The position numbers were made by a program, and so were the translations under genes. The notes below the pieces were generated by a model. That model worked only from the letters and a program-made list of their open reading frames with translations. It did not search any database and was not told the DNA's origin. Positions 14,223 through 64,000 of a DNA stretch of 64,000 bases are shown piece after piece; the first letter of the stretch is position 1; each line of letters begins with the position of its first letter. The stretch lies in contig JBEKVZ010000007.1 in assembly GCA_049513575.1 (NCBI GenBank), forward strand, positions 10,612 through 74,611. Reading direction: 5' to 3'. Origin of the DNA: Gemmatimonadales bacterium (lineage in GTDB: Bacteria > Gemmatimonadota > Gemmatimonadetes > Gemmatimonadales > JACORV01).

Positions 14223-15133
14223 ACACCCTACACCCCACTCCCTACACCCTGTTGGTGCTGTTGCTCGCCGTCGCCTGCTCTCCGGTCGCGGACCACGCGC
14301 GGCTCGGCGACCGCCGGTACGCGGAGCGCGCGTTCGTGGACGCGCTCGCGGAGTACCGGCTCGCGATGCACCAGCGCGTGCCCGACGCCGAGCTCCGGGC
14401 CAAGTTCGCCGAGGCCGCGCTGCAGGCCGGCGCGCTGGGCGAGGCGGTCACGGCCTACCACGACCTGGCGCGCGCCGAGCCGGGGGCAGGTGACGAGGCG
14501 GCGGATGGGCTCACGCGCGCGGCGCGGCTGGCGATAGGCGCGCGCGACATCTCGGCGCTCTCCGATGCCCTGCTCGCCTTGCGCGACATCGCCCCGCAGC
14601 GGCCGGTCGGCTTTCTCGCGGTGGCGCTCGGCGCCGGCACCGCCTATGCCCGGCGCCCGGAAGCGATGGACGTCCTGTTGGAGGCGGCCGCCGCCGCGTC
14701 CACGGTGGCGGGCGCCGACTCGTTCCTCGTGGCCTACGCCGACCTCAACGTGCACATGGGCCGCTGCGACGCCGCGACCCGTACCTACGAGGCGGTCCTT
14801 CGCCGCAGCCGCCAGGTGCCGCCGCTGGTGGAGGCGGCGCGCGGCGGGCTCGCCGGCTGCTCGGTCGAGGACGGCAAGGCATCGCTGAGCGCCGGTTCGC
14901 TGCAGGACGCCGAGGTGCGCTTCCGGAAGGCGATCTCGATCGGGGAGCCCGACAGCGTCGTGCGCCTCGCGTGGCTCCTGATCGGCGACACCCGTTGGGC
15001 CAAGGGCGACACCGCCGTGGCCCAGGACGCGTACCGCCGCGCGATGTCGGGCGCCGCCGAGGGAGACCCGATCGCGGCGCGCGCGAACGATCAACTCAAC
15101 CGGTTGCTGGGGAAGGGAACTCCGACGCCATGA
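14219..15133 (+). CDS. putative lipoprotein with TPR-like helical repeats
   Basis: TTG 14219 followed by the lipobox-like signal LLVLLLAVAC. Alanine-rich helical repeats. Start is uncertain. Confidence 0.45.
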   Translation: MNTLHPTPYTLLVLLLAVACSPVADHARLGDRRYAERAFVDALAEYRLAMHQRVPDAELRAKFAEAALQAGALGEAVTAYHDLARAEPGAGDEAADGLTRAARLAIGARDISALSDALLALRDIAPQRPVGFLAVALGAGTAYARRPEAMDVLLEAAAAASTVAGADSFLVAYADLNVHMGRCDAATRTYEAVLRRSRQVPPLVEAARGGLAGCSVEDGKASLSAGSLQDAEVRFRKAISIGEPDSVVRLAWLLIGDTRWAKGDTAVAQDAYRRAMSGAAEGDPIAARANDQLNRLLGKGTPTP

Positions 15134-16430: not shown

Positions 16431-16512
16431 GGAGGCACGGAGGCACAGAGGTCCTGAGGCACGGGAACGGCGCTGCACCGGCCGTGCCTCCGTGCCGCCG
16501 TGCCCCCGTGCG
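16431..16512. repeat. octamer-periodic imperfect palindrome, GAGGCACG family (copy A1)
   Basis: Left arm is about 4x GAGGCACG at period 8; right arm is about 4x CGTGCCNC. Inner 9-bp stem GAGGCACGG/CCGTGCCTC. Fills the nadD-secA gap. Confidence 0.85.
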
Positions 16513-23540: not shown

Positions 23541-25627
23541 CGGAGTTCCGTCTCGAGGCACCCTTCGAGCCCGCCGGCGACCAGCCCCAGGCCATCGACG
23601 CGCTGGTCCGCGGCTTCACCGCCGGCGAGCGGCATCAGGTGCTGCTCGGCGTCACCGGCTCCGGCAAGACGATGACCATGGCCACCGCCGTCCGGCGACT
23701 GGGCCGGCCGGCGCTGGTTCTCTCGCACAACAAGACGCTCGCGGCGCAGCTCTACGGCGAGCTGAAGTCCTTCTTCCCGTCGAACGCGGTCGAGTTCTTC
23801 ATCTCGTACTACGACTACTACCAGCCCGAGGCGTACGTCCCGCAGACCGACACCTACATCGAAAAGGACGCCTCGATCAACCAGGACATCGAGCGGCTGC
23901 GCCTCCGGGCGACGTCGAGCCTGGTGGAGCGGGACGACGTGATCGTCGTGGCGACGGTCTCCGCGATCTACGGCCTCGGCGACCCGGTGGAGTACCGGGA
24001 GCAGATGCTGCGGCTGGGGCGCGGCGAGACCGTCGGGCGGCGCCCGATCCTCGAGCGGCTGGTCGGGATCCAGTACCAGCGCAACGACGTCGCGTTCGAG
24101 CCCGGCAACTTCCGGGTGCGGGGCGACGTGATCGAGGTCTTCCCCGCCTACGAGGAGCAGGCGGTGCGCATCGAGCTGTTCGGGGACGCCATCGAGCGCA
24201 TCGTCAAGATCGATCCGCTGACCGGGCGGAAGGTCGCCGAGCTGGAGCGGTGCGCGATCTATCCGGCCACCCACTTCGTCACGAACCGCCCCAACCTCGA
24301 GCGCGCCATCGGCCTGATCCGCGAGGAGCTGGCGGCGCGCCTCGCCGCGCTCAAGGAGGCGGGGAAGCTCCTCGAGGCCCAGCGCCTCGAGTCGCGCACC
24401 CGCTTCGACATCGAGATGATGCTCGAGGTCGGCACCTGCCACGGGATCGAGAACTACAGCCGCCACCTCTCGGGCCGCGCGCAGGGCGAGCGCCCGGCGG
24501 TCCTGATGGACTTCTTCCCCAAGGACTTCCTCGTGATCGTGGACGAGTCGCACGTCACCGTGCCGCAGATCGGCGCGATGTACGCCGGCGACCGCTCGCG
24601 CAAGGAGACGCTCGTCGAGTACGGCTTCCGCCTCCCCTCGGCGCTCGACAACCGCCCCCTGCGCTACGACGAGTTCCTCCAGCTCGCACCCCGCGCGCTC
24701 TTCGTCTCCGCCACCCCCGGCCCCGAGGAGCTGCGCCTCTCCGGCGGCGCCGTGGTCGAGCAGCTCGTCCGGCCAACGGGCTTGGTCGATCCGGAGGTCG
24801 AGGTCCGCAAGGTCGAAGGCCAGGTGGACGACCTGCTCAAGGAGATCCGCGCGCGGGAACGCCGCGGCGAGCGCGTGCTCGTGACCACGCTGACCAAGCG
24901 GATGGCGGAGGACCTCACCGACTACCTGGCTCAGGTGGGCGTGCGCGTCCGGTACATGCACTCCGACATCGACGCCATCGAGCGGATGGACATCATCCGC
25001 GGCCTCAGGCTGGGCGAGTTCGACGTGCTGGTCGGGATCAACCTGCTCCGCGAGGGGCTCGACCTCCCGGAGGTCTCGCTGGTCGCGATCCTCGACGCCG
25101 ACCAGGAGGGCTTCCTGCGCTCGCGTACGTCGCTCATCCAGACGGTGGGCCGCGCGGCGCGCCACCTCGACGGCAAGGCGATCCTCTACGCCGATCGGAT
25201 GACCGACTCGATGAAGGCGGCGCTGGCGGAGATGGACCGCCGCCGCTGCACCCAGGAGCGCTACAACGCCGAGCACGGGATCACGCCGCGCTCCATCGTC
25301 AAGTCGGTGGACCAGATCCGTTTCACCACCCGCGTCGCCGACGCGCGCGAGGACCCGGTCCCCCGCGCCGAGGCGGTGTCCCTGATGGGGAAGGCCGCGG
25401 GCGACTGGAGCGGCCTCGACCAGGCGCAGCGCGAGACGCTGGTCAGGCAACTCGAGGACGAGATGCGCCGGGCGGCCGACGACCTGGATTTCGAGCTGGC
25501 CGCGCAGCTGCGCGATCAGATTCTCGATCTCAGGGCGAGCACGCAGAATCGGGGACGCGCGGACGCACCGACGCATGGACGCACGGAAGAAGCTCGGGGT
25601 AGGCGTGGGCGGCCGGCGCGTCGATGA
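23537..25627 (+). CDS. uvrB: excinuclease ABC subunit B
   Basis: GTG 23537 overlaps the relA stop. [10 protein letters not shown] Walker [11 protein letters not shown] beta-hairpin region, C-terminal UVR motif. Confidence 0.95.
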
Positions 25628-26033: not shown

Positions 26034-26665
26034 CCGGTCTCTTCCTCGCGCTGGATACCGCGACGGACGTGCCGTCGCTGGCCGTGGGCACGCCCCGGGA
26101 CCCGGGGCCCGGGATCCGGATCCCGGGACGCCGTGAGCTGTCCCGGGATCTCGAGCGCTGGACGGCGCAGCTTCTCTCGGCTCGCGGCGTGGAGGTGGGC
26201 GATCTCGCGGGCGTCGTCGTCGCCGACGGTCCCGGGAGCTTCACCGGCTTGAGGATCGGCATCGCCTTCGCCAAGGGGCTGTGTCGCGCCCGGCGCCTGC
26301 CACTCCTCGCCGCTCCCTCGCTCCTCGGCGCCGCCTGGACCGCCGCGCGGGGCTCGGGCGTTGCGCTGGCCGAGTACGACGCTCTGCGCGGTGACGTGTA
26401 CCGCGCCGCGTATCGGCTGGCCCCGGGAGGCGTCGAGGTCCTGCTCGCTCCCGCCCTGGCGGCGGCCGGCTCGAGCGCCGATCTGCCGGAGGGCTACGCG
26501 CGCGCGACGGCCGACCAGGCGTCGGCGGCCTCGCTCCTCCGCCTCGTCGGGCTGAGCGGCGGCGCGCACGCCGTCACCGATCCGGCGCGGTGGGAGCCAG
26601 CCTACGGGCGCCCGGCGGAGGCCGAGGCGCGCTACCGCGCGCACCAGGCGGCACATGGCGCCTAG
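26030..26665 (+). CDS. tsaB: tRNA t6A37 biosynthesis protein TsaB (YeaZ)
   Basis: GTG 26030 (GTGA overlap). LALDTAT and GPGSFTGLRIG motifs. Confidence 0.8.
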   Translation: MTGLFLALDTATDVPSLAVGTPRDPGPGIRIPGRRELSRDLERWTAQLLSARGVEVGDLAGVVVADGPGSFTGLRIGIAFAKGLCRARRLPLLAAPSLLGAAWTAARGSGVALAEYDALRGDVYRAAYRLAPGGVEVLLAPALAAAGSSADLPEGYARATADQASAASLLRLVGLSGGAHAVTDPARWEPAYGRPAEAEARYRAHQAAHGA

Positions 26666-28970: not shown

Positions 28971-29040
28971 AGTCGAGAGTTGAGCGCCGAGAGTTGAGAG
29001 TGCTCGACTCTCAACCCTCACAGCGCAAACCTCTCAGCGC
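28971..29040. repeat. imperfect palindrome, GAGAGTTGAG variant (terminator-like hairpin)
   Basis: GAGAGTTGAG occurs twice (28975, 28989). A 12-bp stem 28989-29000/29008-19 has one mismatch and a 7-nt loop. It starts 5 nt after the LysM gene stop. Confidence 0.7.
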
Positions 29041-29055
29041 AGGGTCCTTCATTCC

Positions 29056-30006
29056 ATGAAACGTCGCGTGCTCGTCACCGGCGGTGCGGGATTCATCGGA
29101 TCCCACGTCGCCGACGCCTTCCTCGCTGCGGGTAACGACCTCACCGTCATCGACAATCTGTCGCGCGGCCGCCCGCAGCAGGTGCCGCGGGCCGCGGAGT
29201 TCCGGCAGCTGGACGTCGGCTCCGAGGAGGCGCGCGCCCTGGTGGCGGGAGGCGGATTCGAGGTGATCGTCCACCTGGCGGCGCAGGTGGACGTCCGCGT
29301 GTCCGTGTCCGACCCGGTGTTCGATGCGGAGGAGAACCTGCTCGCCCTGCTGTCGCTCCTGGAGGGTGCGCGCGCGGGGGGGACGCGCCGGATCGTCTTC
29401 TCCTCGTCGGGCGGCGTGGTCTACGGCGAGCGGCGGCCGCCGCACGTCGAGACCGCGCCGAAGTTTCCGATCTCGCCCTATGGCGTGAGCAAGCTCGCGG
29501 CCGAGTACTACCTCGGCTGCTACGCGCAACTCTACGGTCTGGAGACGGTCGCGCTCCGGTACAGCAACGTCTTCGGGCCGCGGCAGGACCCGCACGGCGA
29601 GGCGGGCGTCGTCGCGATCTTCGGCAACCGCCTGCGCCAGAAGAAGGCGCTGACGATTTACGGCGACGGGAACCAGACCCGCGACTACGTGTACGTCGCC
29701 GACGTGGCCCGCGCGAACGTGCTTGCCGCCGACGCCGTGCTCCCGCCCCTCGACGGCACCATCGACGCGCGGGCGTTCAACATCGGTATCGGCGTCGAAA
29801 CCTCGGTGAACGCGCTCGCCCAGGCGATGATCGAGGCCTCCGGCGTCGAGGTCCCGGTCGAGCACGCCCCCGCCCGAGGCGGCGAGCTGCTCGCCAACGC
29901 CCTGACGGCGGACAAGGCCGCCCGGGTGCTCGGCTGGAAGCCCGGGGTGTCCCTCGCCGAGGGGCTGAAGGCGACCTACGACTGGATCGTGCGGGAGGCG
30001 TCGTGA
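29056..30006 (+). CDS. NAD-dependent epimerase (UDP-glucose 4-epimerase family)
   Basis: GGAGFIGSH, SPYGVSKLAAEYY, RYSNVFGPRQDP. Confidence 0.75.
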   Translation: MKRRVLVTGGAGFIGSHVADAFLAAGNDLTVIDNLSRGRPQQVPRAAEFRQLDVGSEEARALVAGGGFEVIVHLAAQVDVRVSVSDPVFDAEENLLALLSLLEGARAGGTRRIVFSSSGGVVYGERRPPHVETAPKFPISPYGVSKLAAEYYLGCYAQLYGLETVALRYSNVFGPRQDPHGEAGVVAIFGNRLRQKKALTIYGDGNQTRDYVYVADVARANVLAADAVLPPLDGTIDARAFNIGIGVETSVNALAQAMIEASGVEVPVEHAPARGGELLANALTADKAARVLGWKPGVSLAEGLKATYDWIVREAS

Positions 30007-30010
30007 GACC

Positions 30011-30106
30011 GGAGGCACGGAGGCACGGGCGCACGGGGGCACAGGCACGGCGACTCGCCGCCTGGTTGTCTGTGCCGCTGTGCCTCTGTGCCGCCGTGCC
30101 CGCTGC
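30011..30106. repeat. octamer-periodic imperfect palindrome, GAGGCACG family (copy A2)
   Basis: GGAGGCAC GGAGGCAC GGGCGCAC GGGGGCAC on the left; TGTGCCGC TGTGCCTC TGTGCCGC CGTGCC on the right. Fills the gap before tolQ. Confidence 0.85.
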
Positions 30107-38618: not shown

Positions 38619-39473
38619 ATGCGTCGGCTTCCCCTGCTGATCCCGTTGGTCGTGGCCTCCGCGGCCGCGCTGAACGCCTGCTACGATCGCGGCGTGAGCA
38701 ACCCGACCGTCGTCACCGTGCCCGCGCCGACCTATCTGAACAGCGTCTCGCTCAACGGCGCGGTGTACCTCAGCTGGGACGACACGCCGTACGCAAGCTC
38801 CCCGAACGCCTTCTCGCACTACCAGGTCTACAGTACGAGCTACGACTTGGACCACAACCTGTGCGGCAGCAGCTGGAGCGTGGAGGGGACCACCGTCTCG
38901 CCCGAGTTCCTGGTCGGCGCGCTCACGAACGGCGTGCCGCTCTGCTTGGCCGTCTCGGCGATCTCTGTGGACGACTATGAGAGCGACCGGTCGCCGCTCC
39001 GGAACGACACGCCGCGGCCCGATGCGCGGAACGTGGTGCTCTTCTCGACCGACACGCTGTCCGGTCAGCAGAGCGGCTTCCGCTTCTGGCTCGACGCCAA
39101 CGGCAACGCGCAGGTGGACGTCGGGGAGCTGGGGCTGGTCGGCAACAGCGCGACCGGCGCCAACGACTTCATCCTCACCCGCAACGCGAGCCGGCTCTGG
39201 CTGACGCCGCAGCGCTCCGGCGTGACGATGCAGGTGTATGGCACGACGCCGATCGCCGACCTCACTTCCATCGATCTCGCACCGAACGGTGGGTACAGCG
39301 GGAGCGCGATCAGCGCGGCGCCGATGTGGGGCTACGTGTTCCAGATCGTCGAGGGGCAGTTCTACAAGTACGGCGCGATCCGCGTCACGGCGGTCGGCCC
39401 GAACTACGTCATCTTCGACTGGTCGTACCAGACGGATCCCGGGAATCCGGAGCTGGTGCCGGGCAAGAGGTGA
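38619..39473 (+). CDS. hypothetical lipoprotein with FN3-like segment
   Basis: ATG 38619 gives the lipobox signal MRRLPLLIPLVVASAAALNAC. No family recognised. High GC3 supports coding. Confidence 0.55.
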   Translation: MRRLPLLIPLVVASAAALNACYDRGVSNPTVVTVPAPTYLNSVSLNGAVYLSWDDTPYASSPNAFSHYQVYSTSYDLDHNLCGSSWSVEGTTVSPEFLVGALTNGVPLCLAVSAISVDDYESDRSPLRNDTPRPDARNVVLFSTDTLSGQQSGFRFWLDANGNAQVDVGELGLVGNSATGANDFILTRNASRLWLTPQRSGVTMQVYGTTPIADLTSIDLAPNGGYSGSAISAAPMWGYVFQIVEGQFYKYGAIRVTAVGPNYVIFDWSYQTDPGNPELVPGKR

Positions 39474-39625
39474 GACAAGTGAGAAGGGCCAGGTGAGACG
39501 GCGAAGTGCGGGGTGAGAGGTGAGAGGCCGCGCCGCAGCTGACGGGCGACCTCTCACCTCTCGCGCTTCTCGACCTCTCGCCTCTCACTTTGCCCTCTCA
39601 GGTTTTTCCCCTCTCACCCCGCACG
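39468..39625. repeat. long imperfect palindrome, GTGAGAG family (copy B1)
   Basis: GTGAGA core occurs 5x on the left arm and TCTCAC/TCTCGC about 6x on the right. Inner 13-bp stem GAGAGGTGAGAGG/CCTCTCACCTCTC. GTGCGGGGTGAGAGG at 39506 has a perfect complement at 39611. Confidence 0.85.
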
Positions 39626-46240: not shown

Positions 46241-46486
46241 ATGTTCGAAGGCTTGAGCCTGACCCACATTCTGCTCTTCCTGGTCATCCTGCTGCTGCTC
46301 TTCGGGGCCAAGCGGCTGCCGGAAATCGGCGGCGCGCTGGGGAAGTCCATCGGGGAGTTCAAGCGCAGCATGCGGGACGTGCAGAACGAGTTCAATACGT
46401 CCGCGAACCAGCAGGGGCGAATCGAGCCACCGCCGCCCCCCAGCCAGCCTGCTCCGCCGCAGCCGCCCAAGGCCCCGGGTGCGTGA
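46241..46486 (+). CDS. tatA: twin-arginine translocase subunit TatA/E
   Basis: AAGGAG Shine-Dalgarno. ILLFLVILLLLFGAKRLPEIGGALGKSIGEFK is the canonical TatA TM plus amphipathic helix. Confidence 0.9.
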   Translation: MFEGLSLTHILLFLVILLLLFGAKRLPEIGGALGKSIGEFKRSMRDVQNEFNTSANQQGRIEPPPPPSQPAPPQPPKAPGA

Positions 46487-46640
46487 GAGGTGAGAGGGAC
46501 CGACGGGACGTGAGACGGTGGAGTCAGACGTGAGCAGGGGAAAGGCGTGAGGGGTGAGGGGCCATACGCGGCCTCTCACCCCTCACCTCGTCCTCTCACT
46601 TCTCCCTTCGCCTTCTCACCCCTTGCGCCTCACCGCTCAC
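46483..46640. repeat. long imperfect palindrome, GTGAGAG family (copy B2)
   Basis: Sits between convergent tatA (+) and ppiD (-). Inner 17-bp stem GTGAGGGGTGAGGGGCC/GGCCTCTCACCCCTCAC has one mismatch. Arms overlap both stop codons. Confidence 0.85.
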
Positions 46641-51043: not shown

Positions 51044-51206
51044 GTACCAGTGATCGGAGCAGTTGCCAGACGGCAAGTACTGAAGTGGTCACCAGACGCG
51101 AGCTCACAGGAGCCAGACCAGTTGCCAGTACTGACAACTGGCCTGCGTTCCGCGGGCTGGCAACTGGTAACCACTTCCTCCTTCGCCGTCTGGCAACTGT
51201 CCTGAC
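51044..51206. repeat. long imperfect palindrome, GTTGCCAG family (copy D2)
   Basis: Outer stem CAGTTGCCAGACGGCA (51060)/CGCCGTCTGGCAACTG (51185). Central 24-nt palindrome CCAGTTGCCAGTACTGACAACTGG (51118-51141). Confidence 0.85.
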
Positions 51207-56223: not shown

Positions 56224-58420
56224 TCTCTGGGCCATAGGGGCCCTGCTCGCGGGTCTGTTCCTGGCGCTCGCGGCGGCCCCCGGCGTTTCGCTCACCGGCC
56301 CGGTCGGCGTCGCCCTCGGGGCCGGACTGCGCTCCTTCTTCGGCGCCGGCGCCGCCGCCGTCCCGCTCATCCCGCTCTTCTGGGCCGTCGCGCTCTTCGG
56401 CCACCTCGACCGCAGCCTCGGCCGCCGCGTCACGATCCTCCTCGCCGGCCTCTCTCTCACCGTGCCGCTCGCTCTCGGCGTCGGCTACCAGACCTGGGAG
56501 AGCGTCGCGCACGCCGCGCTCGTGTCCGGCGCGCTGCCGGAATACCCGCGCTGGGTGGGCCTCGCCGGCGGGTTCCTTGCGTACGAGCTGAGGATCATCG
56601 GGCCCGTGGGCGAGGGCCTCCTCGCGCTGGGCATCTTCTCGGGGCTCACCATCGCCACGGTGGGATGGAATCCGCTGGGGATGCTGCGAAAACGGGAAGC
56701 GGCGTCGGGTGTCGGGGGTCAGGTGTCGGGGGCTGTCGAGGCGCCGCCTCCCGAGCTCCCGGAAGACGTCTTCGCGAGCGCTGAGGAGGAGGCTGAAGAG
56801 GAGTCCGTGCCCGCCAAGCGGGGCCGGAAGGGCGGGGCCCCGGCACCCGGCACCCGGCACCCGACACCTGCTTTGGCCGACGAGCTTCCCCCGATCGACC
56901 TGCTGAATCCCCCGTTGCCCCAGCCGGCCAACTTCGAGGCCGAGCTCGATCGCCTCCAGAGCGTACTGATCGACACGCTGAGGCAGTTCAAGGTCGAGGG
57001 GGCGATCGGCGGGCGGACCACGGGACCGGTGGTCACGCAGTTCGAGGTCGTCCCGGCCGCTGGCGTGAAGGTGGGGCGCATCGCGGCGCTCGCGGACGAT
57101 CTGGCGCTCACGATGCGCGCGCAGAGCATCCGCATCGTCGCGCCGATCCCGGGGAAAGGCGCGGTCGGCGTCGAGGTGCCGAATCCGACGCCGCGCCTGG
57201 TCGGCTTTCGCGAGCTGCTCGAGGCGCCCGAATGGCAGAAGGCGGTCCAGCGCCTGCTCCTGCCCGTCGCGCTGGGCCGGGACCTCGAAGGCCGGCCGAT
57301 CATCGCCGACCTGACGAAGATGCCGCACCTCCTGATCGCCGGCGCCACCGGCTCGGGGAAATCGGTCTGCATCAACACGCTCATCACGAGCCTCGTGTAC
57401 CGCTACACGCCGGCCGAGATGCGCTTCCTGATGATCGATCCCAAGATGGTCGAGCTGTCGATGTACAACGCGCTGCCGCACCTCAGGCACCGCGTCGTCA
57501 CCGACAACAAGGACGCCGCGCACGTGCTCAAGTGGGCCGTGTGGGAGATGCAGGATCGCTACGAGCTGCTCCACGCCAACAACGCCCGCAACCTGGTGGA
57601 CTTCAACCACAAGCTCGCCGAGGACCCGTCGACGATCGTGAAGCCGAACGGCGAGGCGTACGAGGAGGGAGCGCTCCCCTACATCCTCCTCTTCGTGGAC
57701 GAGCTGGCCGACCTCATCATGACCGTGCAGGCCGAGGTCGAGACGCCGCTGGCGCTGCTCGCGCAGAAGGCGCGGGCGATCGGCATCCACCTGATCCTCG
57801 CGACCCAGCGGCCGTCGGTGAACGTCATCACCGGCCTCATCAAGGCGAACTTCCCCTGCCGGATCGCCTTCCGCGTCGCGTCCAAGATCGACAGCCGTAC
57901 CATCCTCGATCAGAACGGCGCCGAAGCGCTGCTGGGCAACGGGGACATGCTCTTCATGCCGCCGGGGAAGAGCGACCTGATGCGGCTGCAGGGCGCGTTC
58001 GTCGGCACCGACGAGACCGAGAAGCTGATGCACTGGTTCGACGCGCGGGCCGAAGCGCGGCGTGAGGCGGCCGCTGAGGCCGCAGAGGCGGGCGCGGAGG
58101 GCGCTGAAGGAGAAGCCGGCGAGGCCGACATCCTCGAGGTCGTGCGCGCGCGGATCGCCGAGGAGGAAGGCGGCGACGAGGGCGGCGCCGACGCCGGCGG
58201 CGGGCTGGCGGAGCGCGATCCGCTCTTCCGCCAGGCCGCGGAAGTCTGCATCCAGAACCAGCTCGGCTCGACGTCGCTCCTCCAGCGGCGCCTCAAGATC
58301 GGCTACGGCCGCGCGGCCAGGATCATCGACCAGCTGCACGATGCCGGCATCCTCGGGCCGCCGGACGGGTCCAAGGCTCGGGAGGTGCTCGTGGGGTTGC
58401 AGGATCTCGATCAGTACTGA
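56177..58420 (+). CDS. ftsK: DNA translocase FtsK
   Basis: N-terminal TM segments, Walker A GATGSGKSVCINT, Walker B FVDELADL, C-terminal gamma winged helix GSTSLLQRRLKIGYGRAARIIDQL. Confidence 0.9.
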   Translation: MPTAGSRRIDPRTKDDLWAIGALLAGLFLALAAAPGVSLTGPVGVALGAGLRSFFGAGAAAVPLIPLFWAVALFGHLDRSLGRRVTILLAGLSLTVPLALGVGYQTWESVAHAALVSGALPEYPRWVGLAGGFLAYELRIIGPVGEGLLALGIFSGLTIATVGWNPLGMLRKREAASGVGGQVSGAVEAPPPELPEDVFASAEEEAEEESVPAKRGRKGGAPAPGTRHPTPALADELPPIDLLNPPLPQPANFEAELDRLQSVLIDTLRQFKVEGAIGGRTTGPVVTQFEVVPAAGVKVGRIAALADDLALTMRAQSIRIVAPIPGKGAVGVEVPNPTPRLVGFRELLEAPEWQKAVQRLLLPVALGRDLEGRPIIADLTKMPHLLIAGATGSGKSVCINTLITSLVYRYTPAEMRFLMIDPKMVELSMYNALPHLRHRVVTDNKDAAHVLKWAVWEMQDRYELLHANNARNLVDFNHKLAEDPSTIVKPNGEAYEEGALPYILLFVDELADLIMTVQAEVETPLALLAQKARAIGIHLILATQRPSVNVITGLIKANFPCRIAFRVASKIDSRTILDQNGAEALLGNGDMLFMPPGKSDLMRLQGAFVGTDETEKLMHWFDARAEARREAAAEAAEAGAEGAEGEAGEADILEVVRARIAEEEGGDEGGADAGGGLAERDPLFRQAAEVCIQNQLGSTSLLQRRLKIGYGRAARIIDQLHDAGILGPPDGSKAREVLVGLQDLDQY

Positions 58421-59964: not shown

Positions 59965-59997
59965 GGGGGGTTAGGGGTTAGGGGTTAGGGGTTAGGG
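59965..59997 (+). repeat. (GGGGTTA)n heptamer tandem repeat, G-quadruplex-type motif
   Basis: GGGGGG TTA GGGG TTA GGGG TTA GGGG TTA GGG on the + strand, 115 nt upstream of the recA ATG. Confidence 0.9.
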
Positions 59998-60026
59998 CCG
60001 CGCGAGGCAGGTTCTGAATCTCGCGA

Positions 60027-60068
60027 CTGGCAACTGGTAACCACTGGCAACTTGCCGTCTGGCAACTG
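60027..60068. repeat. GTTGCCAG-family right-arm element (copy D3)
   Basis: Three direct CTGGCAAC cores (60027, 60044, 60059). A 19-nt identity CTGGCAACTGGTAACCACT is shared with 51157-51175. Confidence 0.8.
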
Positions 60069-60111
60069 AACCGTATCCGTCGGCTCTGAACTTTGTTTCC
60101 GCGAGGCGAGG

Positions 60112-61811: not shown

Positions 61812-64000
61812 ATGGATGCCGCACGGATTCGCCGCCGTTTCCTCGACTTCTTCGTCGAGCGAGGCCACCGCGAGGTAGCCTCGTCGTCGCTCGTCCCGCG
61901 GGACGACCCGACCCTCCTGTTCACCAACGCCGGGATGGTGCAGTTCAAGCGCGTCTTCCTGGGGATCGAGCGCCGGGACTACAAGCGCGCGACCACCTCC
62001 CAGAAGTGCGTGCGGGCCGGCGGCAAGCACAACGACCTCGAGCAGGTGGGGCACACCGACCGGCACCACACCTTCTTCGAGATGCTCGGCAACTTTTCCT
62101 TCGGCGACTACTTCAAGAAGGAGGCGATCGGCTTCGCCTGGGAGTTCGTGACCTCGCAGCAGTGGCTGGGCATCCATCCCGACCGCATCAGGATCAGCGT
62201 GCACGCGAAGGACGACGATGCGCGGCGGCTCTGGCACGACGTGGCCGGCGTCAGCGACGACCGCATTTACGGCCTGGGCGATGCGGACAACTTCTGGCAG
62301 ATGGCCGACACCGGCCCCTGCGGGTTCTGCAGCGAAGTGTACGTCGACCTGGCGGGCACGGGGGCACGGGGGCACGGAGGCACGGAGCTCGCCGAGCCGG
62401 TGAGCGACCACATCCACTCCCTCGACACGTTCGTGGAGTTGGCGGAGGCGGGGCGGTTCCTGGAGATCTGGAACCTCGTCTTCATGCAGTTCGACCGGCA
62501 GGCCTCCGGCGAGCTCGTGCCGCTTCCCGCGCCGTCGGTGGACACGGGTGCCGGGCTCGAGCGCATCGCCGCAGTGCTGCAGGGCGTCGGCTCCAACTTC
62601 CACACCGACCTCTTCGCGCCGCTCATCGCCCGTGCCGAGCTGGTGGTCGGCAAGGCGTACGACAAGGGGCCGGCCGGCGCGCCGTTCCGCGTCCTGGCCG
62701 ACCACGCCCGGGCGGTGGCGTTCCTGCTCGCCGACGGCGTCTATCCGTCGAACGAGGGGCGCGGCTACGTGCTGCGCCGGATCCTGCGGCGCGCGGTCCG
62801 CCACGCCTATCTCCTCGGGCGTCGCGAGCCGACGCTGGTGCGCCTGGTCGAGGAGGTCGCGCGAGTGATGGGGGGCGTCTACCCCGAGCTGCAGCAGCAC
62901 GCCGCGCAGCTCTCCGAGGTCACGACCGCCGAGGAGGAGCGCTTCCTCGAGACGATCGAGGGCGGGCTCGAGCGGCTCGCGGACTTGAAGGCGGTCTCGG
63001 CGGAGGAGGCGTTCAAGCTCTACGACACTTACGGTTTCCCGATCGACCTCACGCAGATCGTCGCGGCCGAGCGGGGCATCGCGGTGGACGTCCCGGGCTT
63101 CGAGAAGCTGCTCGACGGGCAGCGGGAGCGGTCACGAAATGCGGCCGGCACCGGGGCACAGAGGCATGGAGGCACGGGTGCCGGCGGTGAGGTTTCCCGT
63201 GCCTCCGTGCGCCCGCGCCTCAGTGCCTCCGACTGGGTGTCGGTCAAGAAGCGGGCCCGTCAACGCTGGGTCGGCTACGAGACCACGCGCGCCGAGACCG
63301 ATATCCTGGCGTTCGAGCAGGAGAAGGGCCGCGTCGGCCTGATCCTCCACGAGAACCCGTTCTACGCGGAGAGCGGCGGCCAGGTCAGCGACACGGGCGA
63401 GGTGAAGGGGCGGGGCTGGAGGCTTCCGGTGGAGGAGGTCCGCAAGGTCGAGGGCAAGACTGCCGTCTTCGGCCCGTTCCACGGCCCGTTCGAGCCGACG
63501 CCCGTCGAGGCCGTCGTCGACGGGCGGCTGCGGCGCGACACCGAGCGCAATCACACCGCGACGCACCTGCTCCACGCGGCGCTCCGCAAGATCCTCGGCA
63601 CGCACGTGCGGCAGGCCGGGAGCGTCGTCTCGCCCCAACATCTCCGTTTCGACTTCACGCACCATCAGCCGATCCCGCCGCTGGCCCTGGCCGAGGTCGA
63701 GGCGGAGATCAACCAGCACGTCTGGGAGAACCTCGACGTCGTGCAGAAGGAGATGGCGTACGCCGACGCGCTGACGGTGGGCGCGATGGCGCTGTTCGGC
63801 GAGAAGTACGGCGACGTCGTGCGGACGATCACCGTGCCCGGCGTCTCGATGGAGCTGTGCGGCGGTTGCCACGTGCGGACCACGGGCCAGATCGGCCTTC
63901 TGCGTCTGGTGGGCGAGACGGGCGTCGGCGCCGGCGTGCGCCGCGTCGAGGCGCTCACCGGGCCCGGGGCGTTCGACTGGCTGCTGGAGCGCGTGCGGCT
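61812..64000 (+). CDS. alaS: alanine--tRNA ligase, 3' end outside window
   Basis: Not in the ORF track because the frame stays open to the window end. Hand translation from ATG 61812 found no stop. Matches MDAARIRRRFLDFFVERGH, KCVRAGGKHNDLE, FFEMLGNFSFGDYFK and HTATHLLH. Confidence 0.95.
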   Translation, partial: MDAARIRRRFLDFFVERGHREVASSSLVPRDDPTLLFTNAGMVQFKRVFLGIERRDYKRATTSQKCVRAGGKHNDLEQVGHTDRHHTFFEMLGNFSFGDYFKKEAIGFAWEFVTSQQWLGIHPDRIRISVHAKDDDARRLWHDVAGVSDDRIYGLGDADNFWQMADTGPCGFCSEVYVDLAGTGARGHGGTELAEPVSDHIHSLDTFVELAEAGRFLEIWNLVFMQFDRQASGELVPLPAPSVDTGAGLERIAAVLQGVGSNFHTDLFAPLIARAELVVGKAYDKGPAGAPFRVLADHARAVAFLLADGVYPSNEGRGYVLRRILRRAVRHAYLLGRREPTLVRLVEEVARVMGGVYPELQQHAAQLSEVTTAEEERFLETIEGGLERLADLKAVSAEEAFKLYDTYGFPIDLTQIVAAERGIAVDVPGFEKLLDGQRERSRNAAGTGAQRHGGTGAGGEVSRASVRPRLSASDWVSVKKRARQRWVGYETTRAETDILAFEQEKGRVGLILHENPFYAESGGQVSDTGEVKGRGWRLPVEEVRKVEGKTAVFGPFHGPFEPTPVEAVVDGRLRRDTERNHTATHLLHAALRKILGTHVRQAGSVVSPQHLRFDFTHHQPIPPLALAEVEAEINQHVWENLDVVQKEMAYADALTVGAMALFGEKYGDVVRTITVPGVSMELCGGCHVRTTGQIGLLRLVGETGVGAGVRRVEALTGPGAFDWLLERVR
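62354..62386. repeat. GAGGCACG-family half element inside alaS (copy A3)
   Basis: CACGGGGG CACGGGGG CACGGAGG CACGGAG, four units at period 8, translated as AGTGARGHGGTE. Confidence 0.8.
63147..63231. repeat. GAGGCACG-family complete palindrome inside alaS (copy A4)
   Basis: Perfect 11-bp stem GGAGGCACGGG (63168-78)/CCCGTGCCTCC (63196-206) flanked by further octamer units. Read in frame as GTGAQRHGGTGAGGEVSRASVRPRLSAS. Confidence 0.85.

Follow-up and report, generated by a model that had tools for sequence, protein, structure and literature searches.

The alaS gene of a Gemmatimonadales bacterium carries a short tandem repeat that is read in frame within the catalytic domain of the encoded alanyl-tRNA synthetase (AlaRS), and whose unit recurs in non-coding hairpins elsewhere on the same contig. 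The gene lies at the end of a 64,000-nucleotide stretch of assembly GCA_049513575.1 (contig JBEKVZ010000007.1, positions 10,612 to 74,611), analyzed here as a whole and referred to as the window. In our assessment the tract, four units of the octamer GGCACGGN, is probably one solo member of a dispersed family of short tandem-repeat elements, carried as a tolerated passenger in a permissive AlaRS loop. That the repetition belongs to the DNA, as the original prediction proposed, is indicated by the 8-nt period together with a unit shared with non-coding hairpins, by a relative about 90% identical in which another octamer gives another peptide at the same place, and by unrelated proteins that carry the same array.

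The element consists of GGCACGGN units, usually in 3-5 copies, and its arrays either stand singly or converge in pairs to make a long hairpin. A DNA-level process would have put or rebuilt the array in alaS, and selection would then have retained frame-preserving versions in tolerant parts of the protein only. Here the array would occupy the tip of such a tolerant part, a surface loop with a conserved element of the class II catalytic core on either side, and its product would be a flexible Gly/Thr/Ala/Arg/His stretch without a required function of its own. The array would persist in alaS owing to this position, since the loop accepts lengths of 20-71 residues.

A four-unit octamer array in the alaS reading frame

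Positions 62354-62387 of the window read GGGCACGG GGGCACGG GGGCACGG AGGCACGG AG, four tandem units of GGCACGGN that Tandem Repeats Finder (TRF) reports with a period of 8, 4.0 copies, 95% matches and a score of 57. The alaS frame starts with ATG at 61812, is open to the window end and matches the E. coli AlaRS catalytic fragment 3HXU with E = 6e-144. Four units at an 8-nt period, in frame within alaS, had been described in the original prediction, and both TRF and the open reading frame (ORF) agree with it. Its start at 62354 was also correct, but its end at 62386 was one base short; the register used there, CACGGGGG/CACGGGGG/CACGGAGG/CACGGAG, corresponds to 62357-62387. The encoded residues 181-192 (AGTGARGHGGTE) are flanked by GPCGFCSEVYVD and RFLEIWNLVFMQF, which places the array in the aminoacylation domain as claimed, and GHGGTELAEPVSDHIHSLDTFVELAEAGR is the predicted tryptic peptide of this region. 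We refer to this location as site 1.

The G-rich strand of the array contains no T and hence no stop codon in any of its frames. In-frame survival is easy for this reason, and read-through is possible for any array that does not shift the frame by its net length. A period of 8 had been expected to yield a non-periodic peptide. As three units make 24 nt, the peptide would in fact have a period of 8 residues, and that at site 1 appears non-periodic because only four units are present.

The identical four units were found in the same place in four metagenome assemblies of independent origin (L081, L086, L089 and L210), which excludes an assembly artefact. We give almost no credence to the view that the tract is a phase-variable contingency repeat or the product of mis-assembly. 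As at phase-variable loci, the length of its unit is not divisible by three, but alaS is essential and single-copy here, the reading frame is intact throughout, and four units are seen in five independent assemblies from different samples.

The repeat family in the window and in metagenomes

When the window was searched with the pattern GGCACGGNGGCACGGNGGCACGG, allowing up to 3 mismatches, 13 matches were obtained against 0.04 expected from 100 dinucleotide shuffles. All 13 fall into four loci (16482-16512, 30006-30100, 62355-62385 and 63147-63227). Period-8 arrays numbered 4 in the window against 0.37 in shuffled sequence, and TRF counted 3.6-5.4 copies per array. Since the matches are confined to these four loci, the alaS unit is the unit of the intergenic elements at 16431 and 30011, with whose left arms it had been equated. 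Both intergenic elements have a left arm of GGCACGGN units, a loop of 17-23 nt and a right arm of NCCGTGCC units, and both occupy short non-coding spacers with co-directional genes on either side. Their predicted folding energies are -51 kcal/mol (z = -3.4) for 16431-16512 and -72 kcal/mol (z = -4.6) for 30006-30101. A complete hairpin, absent from the earlier finding, is also present in alaS itself, about 760 bases downstream of the site-1 array (-62.5 kcal/mol, z = -4.8). Its sequence is translated in frame to GTGAQRHGGTGAGGEVSRASVRPRLSAS within a linker, referred to here as site 2, that follows the aminoacylation and tRNA-recognition part, beyond the N-terminal 440 residues. The relative P0003 has this element too, and other relatives have unrelated inserts of 26-79 residues there. 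The ends of the 16431, 30006 and 63147 copies read GGCACGG / CCGTGCC, without a GTAG or CGTC head, and no Rfam family matched the elements in a search of the whole window at gathering thresholds.

The family was followed further in a metagenome scan that required three exact units; at least 120 stretches matched, and the 80 loci that were returned were analyzed. Three units were present in 34 of these loci, four in 27, five in 9 and more in 10, a distribution from which a four-unit peak cannot be shown because the search pattern demanded at least three units. A convergent inverted partner lay within 150 nt at 23 of the 80 loci and a divergent one at 3, and the remaining 54 were solo. The GGCACGGN unit occurs both singly and as convergent pairs able to form hairpins.

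These counts bear on the description of the alaS tract as a half copy of the intergenic element. It is correct that only one arm is present, but the tract need not be a truncated hairpin, because solo arrays are the commonest form in the sample. A two-armed element could once have stood in the loop and later have lost its right arm to deletion, leaving the left arm with or without part of the loop, a history that we consider rather unlikely. Full and very stable hairpins do occupy the same loop in the relatives P0063 and P0091, and by eye the 3' flank of the array, CTCGCCGAGCCGGTGAGC, shares CTCGCCG and CGGTGAG with the loops at 30047-30069 and 63179-63195. However, both of these relatives belong to another clade and use another register, and the shared strings may be due to chance, the loops of the family not being conserved. 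Moreover, no right-arm remnant was seen downstream of the site-1 array, and all nine members of the window's clade lack a right arm.

Hairpins of the family were found in two forms. The first is compact, with loops of 1-28 nt that are not conserved; a conserved loop or core, which would indicate a classical miniature inverted-repeat transposable element (MITE), was sought in these compact hairpins and none was found. The second form comes from lower-GC contigs; it is MITE-like and of greater length, having (CACGGAGG)n ends around a core of 70-100 nt. Since the octamer is found in such elements, its use seems to extend well beyond the lineage of the window. At five of these loci (L097, L106, L113, L132 and L144) the terminal inverted repeats are (CACGGAGG)3-4, with ends like TCTCACGGA...TCCGTGAGA.

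Seven scanned arrays lie in frame in credible genes, each with the G-rich strand as the sense strand, and all seven encode windows of the periodic peptide GTGARGHG. Pfam names five of the seven gene products: UvrA, an FtsX-like permease, an aldehyde dehydrogenase, a beta-lactamase-family protein and RadA. No Pfam match was obtained for the remaining pair, L103 and L158, which are homologous to each other.

The loop that holds the array

Alignment of the window AlaRS with 120 relatives (121 sequences) revealed two places that are hypervariable in both sequence and length, namely site 1 and site 2. Site 1 measures 20-71 residues (median 26) and is 35 residues long in the window, while site 2 ranges from 26 to 79 residues (median 35) and has 41. 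An AlphaFold model of the enzyme, built from 80 sequences (mean predicted local distance difference test score, pLDDT, 82.8), predicts a strand at 173-179, coil at 180-202, a helix at 203-212 and a further strand at 216-229. Within the coil, pLDDT falls below 50 at residues 187-192 and 194-202. The residues of site 2 (448-472) are likewise modelled as coil with a pLDDT of about 35. The orthologue alignment thus puts the array in a hypervariable loop, and the model puts it in a low-pLDDT coil between conserved elements, consistent with the surface-loop placement suggested earlier. As modelled, the array sits in a loop that is predicted to be disordered, and its location fits the fold and function of the protein.

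The size of the insertion needs to be revised. Measured from (Y/V)D to R(Y/F)(I/L)EIWN, the stretch has 35 residues in the window and 18 in E. coli AlaRS, a difference of 17 and not the 10-13 originally estimated; in Aquifex AlaRS the same loop has about 7 residues. Most of the excess over E. coli is a clade-wide segment, SDHIHSLDxFVExAEAG, that is unrelated to the repeat. Nor is the array a clean insertion of 10-13 residues. Compared with close repeat-free orthologues it is a replacement, with 35 nt of repeat taking the place of 23 nt in the closest of them, P0003, and a net gain of 4 residues.

Site 1 in related alaS genes

The AlaRS sequences nearest to that of the window, with up to 92% identity, are of metagenomic origin and are assigned to Gemmatimonadales wherever the source gives a name. 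The six closest alaS genes are 90-94% identical in DNA, and divergence peaks at sites 1 and 2. The DNA at site 1 was compared in eleven orthologues, fetched by individual protein look-up; a contig scan with back-translated AlaRS patterns, whose best match listed was 66% identical, proved too universal and was not used.

Three orthologues with 89-91% identity (P0001, P0004 and P0010) have four GGCACGGN units after the junction that the window has as well, GAYCTGGCG. The same junction and four units are found in P0009 (81%), followed by one CGCGCGGA unit, and P0014 (79%) has four GGCACGGN-type units in the codon register of the window. P0002 (90%) carries four copies of ACGCACGG, which encode a different peptide, ARTHGRTDAR, and its following 30 bases are those of the window. 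P0003 (90%) is repeat-free, with the 23-nt sequence AAGGACCCGAAGACGGGGCTGTG in place of the 35 nt of repeat in P0004, and P0006 (85%) reads ACGCACGG CCGTGCGG ACGCACGG. Farther away, P0063 (69%) has a 2+2-unit hairpin of GGCACGGN (fold z = -6.1), P0091 (65%) a hairpin of GGGCGGWT units (fold z = -7.5) and P0083 (64%) eight copies of CCGCCGAY. At least four different octamers, solo and paired, occupy the AlaRS site-1 loop across the order. Several separate events are required, because the units and registers differ in P0002, P0006, P0063, P0083 and P0091. In a neighbour-joining tree computed with the variable regions masked, the alleles with arrays do not form a single clade, and the repeat-free motif DPxTGxWNGEH was observed in the window's clade and also in its sister clade. 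Recombination among these close alaS sequences is likely.

The comparison also bears on whether the peptide itself has been selected. A Gly/Arg/His-rich extension might be maintained, for example, for contact with tRNA or a partner, the periodicity of the DNA being incidental. Such an adaptive role would account for the presence of the peptide TGARGHGG in P0001, P0004, P0009, P0010, P0014 and P0034 and for a copy number that is steady at four units. We nevertheless regard it as improbable, given close relatives that lack the peptide or have another peptide, from another octamer, at the same place. Peptides of this kind are also encoded by the same DNA array in unrelated enzymes, the region is predicted to be disordered, and loop length is free. 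We infer that the array is neutral for AlaRS, without a role of its own in the enzyme.

A further alternative places the function in the nucleic acid. A G-quadruplex, or pausing at a Shine-Dalgarno-like GGAGG, could tune the transcription, translation or co-translational folding of alaS. The four-unit G-rich heptamers of Xanthomonas and Nostoc form G-quadruplexes in vitro (PMC4692102), and the array has G5 tracts and one GGAGG. Against such a signal, which we think scarcely probable, stand the ACGCACGG allele, with GG tracts only, the relatives without any array, and the site-1 tract itself, which has no hairpin potential and no stable local RNA structure predicted (fold z = +0.65). A local RNA structure at site 1 was ruled out on the basis of this value. 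The G-quadruplex explanation was also rejected for the site-1 copy, as the canonical motif, (G3+ N1-7) x3 G3+, is absent in the window copy, P0001, P0010 and P0002, and is matched only in P0004.

Other repeats in the window and its relatives

Apart from the four GGCACGGN loci, the window contains repeats of other units (Table 1). Some of these are coding. The unit in the uvrB tail, GGACGCAC, is the octamer that stands for GGCACGGN at alaS site 1 of P0002. The two FtsK arrays lie about 100 nt apart, before the alpha domain, and read GVGGQVSG ... APAPGTRHPTP, with variant versions in relatives.

Table 1. Window positions of alaS, of its octamer elements and of other repeats.
Feature	Position	Strand	Context
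alaS (alanine--tRNA ligase)	61812..64000	+	First 729 codons; gene continues past window end
Variable catalytic-domain loop, codons 180-202	62349..62417	+	Between strand 173-179 and helix 203-212
One-armed array, 4 x GGCACGGN	62354..62387	+	Translated as A181-E192 (AGTGARGHGGTE) of AlaRS
Complete hairpin in alaS	63147..63227	+	GGCAC-type left arm, 17-nt loop, CCGTGCC-type right arm
Intergenic hairpin	16431..16512		Cytidylyltransferase-like gene stop (16429) to secA start (16524)
Intergenic hairpin	30006..30101		NAD-dependent epimerase stop (30006) to MotA/ExbB-family start (30111)
Sister-octamer array, GGACGCAC x4.4	25553..25587	+	In frame, UvrB C-terminal tail after UVR motif
FtsK-linker inverted heptamer array, GTCGGGT x4	56704-56732		In frame
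FtsK-linker inverted heptamer array, CCCGGCA x4	56839-56868		In frame
Perfect heptamer array, (GGGGTTA)4.4	59967-59997		UPF0102-recA spacer
CTGGCAAC(T), 3-4 copies	60025-60075		Just upstream of recA
GGTGAGA / TCTCACC heptamer hairpins	39450-39620, 46483-46640, 28975-29033		Mostly near gene ends
Heptamer array, ACACCCT x4	14223-14250
Heptamer array, CCCGGGA x5	26094-26129		Inverted partner at 26140-26161
Longest inverted repeat of the window	51060-51199		Two adjoining 70-nt arms, 74% complementary

Two orthologous intergenic spacers show a behaviour similar to that of site 1. Between the SIS gene and a short-chain dehydrogenase gene, L082 has four copies of CCGTGCCT, L084 and L086 have four copies of CCGTGCGT, and L089 has none. 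In the spacer between the UPF0102 gene and recA, (GGGGTTA)4-5 is present in the window, L081, L084 and L086, with a GTGAGAG-type array in L089 and two units only in L082. Each of the two spacers keeps its array in a fixed position, and usually with a fixed copy number, while the unit has changed in all copies together, and a change in all copies at once points to concerted evolution and not to point mutation.

The (GGGGTTA)4.4 array of the window, shared with L081, L084, L086 and L211, could form a G-quadruplex because it has four G4 tracts. The CTGGCAAC(T) copies next to it, replaced in relatives by three copies of TCTCGCAACTG or by GTCAACTGTCGAC-type repeats, may be an operator for recA regulation. 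The GGTGAGA / TCTCACC hairpins have the architecture of the octamer hairpins with a different unit.

Site 2 of AlaRS is also the place of another type of element. A 49-nt sequence with two small palindromes, GGCGCGCCGCACACCGGCGCGCCGGCAGAGCGCTCGCGGAGCGAGCGCG, matches exactly between L084 (11393-11441) and L212 (11186-11234). It lies at alaS site 2 of P0002, where it is translated as GAPHTGAPAERSRSER, and in an intergenic spacer of the P0006 genome; it is not in the window. Given the presence of this element, site 2 collects more than one kind of repeat.

Origin of the arrays

Slippage during replication, acting with recombination or gene conversion between this and other arrays, could have produced the array in alaS; alternatively, it could stem from a transposition-like insertion. 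Slippage combined with conversion between arrays explains the concerted changes of unit. Several points weigh against our reading of the tract as a tolerated copy of a dispersed element. Neutrality for AlaRS is assumed, and both the structure and the translation are predicted. No target-site duplication was visible by eye at 16431, 30006, 62354 or 63147; the filled and empty alleles differ by a replacement, which makes the boundaries inexact. There is no conserved loop sequence, and no associated enzyme was found, the window's ORFs having been scanned in part and no search having been aimed at RAYT. The codon register of the array is the same in three clades (those of the window, P0009 and P0014), which would fit an old and often lost array, or one spread by recombination, as well as it would fit repeated gains. 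Finally, four units kept in five lineages are odd for a freely slipping repeat, and slippage and conversion alone leave both the steady count of about four units and the excess of convergent over divergent pairs (23:3) unexplained.

It is conceivable, although we think it doubtful, that the arrays are instead the output of an active repeat-writing process that is independent of the unit and makes arms of fixed polarity and set length (about 4 x 7-8 nt). In one candidate mechanism, both 3' ends at a DNA break would be extended on a template and then joined, which would give (unit)n - filler - (reverse-complement unit)n. Such a process would explain the 23 convergent versus 3 divergent pairs, the unconserved loops and the common solo arrays, and it would revisit the same sites. 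If this were true, loops of AlaRS, FtsK, UvrA/B and RadA would be rewritten repeatedly with different units among close Gemmatimonadales.

Implications

Repeat DNA is generally presumed to be excluded from essential, highly conserved enzymes, the textbook exception being the Rickettsia palindromic elements (RPEs) of reduced intracellular genomes. A free-living, high-GC lineage of soil and water shows the same tolerance with another kind of element, octamer arrays and hairpins. The two AlaRS loops are sinks that different repeats have filled in different relatives, and they amount to a natural record of where AlaRS permits insertions, as well as a possible fine-scale typing marker for Gemmatimonadales. 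Annotators should be aware that a low-complexity insert in a housekeeping protein of this phylum can consist of repeat DNA, and that strong hairpins can occur within coding sequence. The system also offers a tractable case of how families of 6-9 nt repeats arise, hold about four units and switch their unit in concert, questions that are likewise unanswered for the repeats of Xanthomonas and Nostoc.

Comparison with known repeat systems

In behaviour, the closest known systems are the RPEs and other in-frame MITE fusions (PMC10969869). RPEs are found between genes and within unrelated housekeeping genes, always in frame and in places deemed compatible with fold and function (PMC10969869), and the octamer repeat is likewise found both in intergenic regions and in frame inside unrelated genes whose ORFs are preserved. 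RPEs are about 150 bp long, have a conserved encoded peptide and form defined families, whereas the elements described here are a 32-nt array or a hairpin of 80-95 nt with no conserved core. The site-1 copy, at 32-34 nt, differs further in being one-armed and non-palindromic, and its host is free-living with 70% G+C, unlike the reduced intracellular genomes that host RPEs.

Short arrays that in some cases lie inside ORFs are also known for the TAACTGA heptamers of Beggiatoaceae, cyanobacteria and Bacteroidetes (MacGregor, 2015; PMC4679880). These have 2-6 copies and are mostly intergenic, mainly just upstream of start codons; they carry stops on one strand, and copies in ORFs survive mainly at the protein periphery (PMC4679880). 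Inverted pairs are nearly absent among them, with one indirect repeat in 169 sets (PMC4679880). The octamer family differs from the TAACTGA repeats in its unit and its host lineages. REP and REPIN elements, which are mobilised by RAYT transposases (IS200/IS605-like Y1), are imperfect GC-rich palindromes of 20-40 bp in intergenic DNA, single or in inverted pairs, which the octamer elements resemble; they are not known to be built of tandem sub-repeats. Most REPs are reported to have a conserved tetranucleotide tag at one end (PMC3733652). The ends of the octamer arrays have no such GTAG or CGTC head. Insertion of STRR repeats within the gene for RNase P RNA is indicated by the title of an earlier report (Vioque, 1997, as cited in PMC2858038). 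Our literature search returned nothing relevant on repeats of Gemmatimonadota, and the exact repeat strings came up in unrelated papers only.

In architecture, the closest relatives are the G-rich GGGNATC heptamers that Rehm et al. (2015; PMC4692102) described in Xanthomonas and Nostoc, together with the STRR heptamers of cyanobacteria to which these are related. The Xanthomonas and Nostoc repeats are head-to-tail units of 6-9 nt, distributed genome-wide with a preference for about four units, and they occur as single arrays or as two convergent arrays that may form a stem-loop (PMC4692102). They lie mostly between co-directional ORFs near stop or start codons, and their type and place are kept between related genomes while their length varies (PMC4692102). 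The octamer family is likewise arranged head-to-tail in many dispersed copies, solo or convergent, and its copies at 16431 and 30006 also stand between co-directional genes. Its unit is 8 nt long, however, and several units coexist (GGCACGGN, ACGCACGG and heptamers), unlike in the Xanthomonas and Nostoc systems. It also differs from them in that the window copy has no canonical G-quadruplex motif, that arrays lie in frame in essential genes, the site-1 copy being coding, that one unit can replace another at orthologous sites, and that the host belongs to the phylum Gemmatimonadota. Taken together, the family differs from known repeats in its 8-nt unit, its interchanging units, the recurrent use of two AlaRS loops and its phylum.

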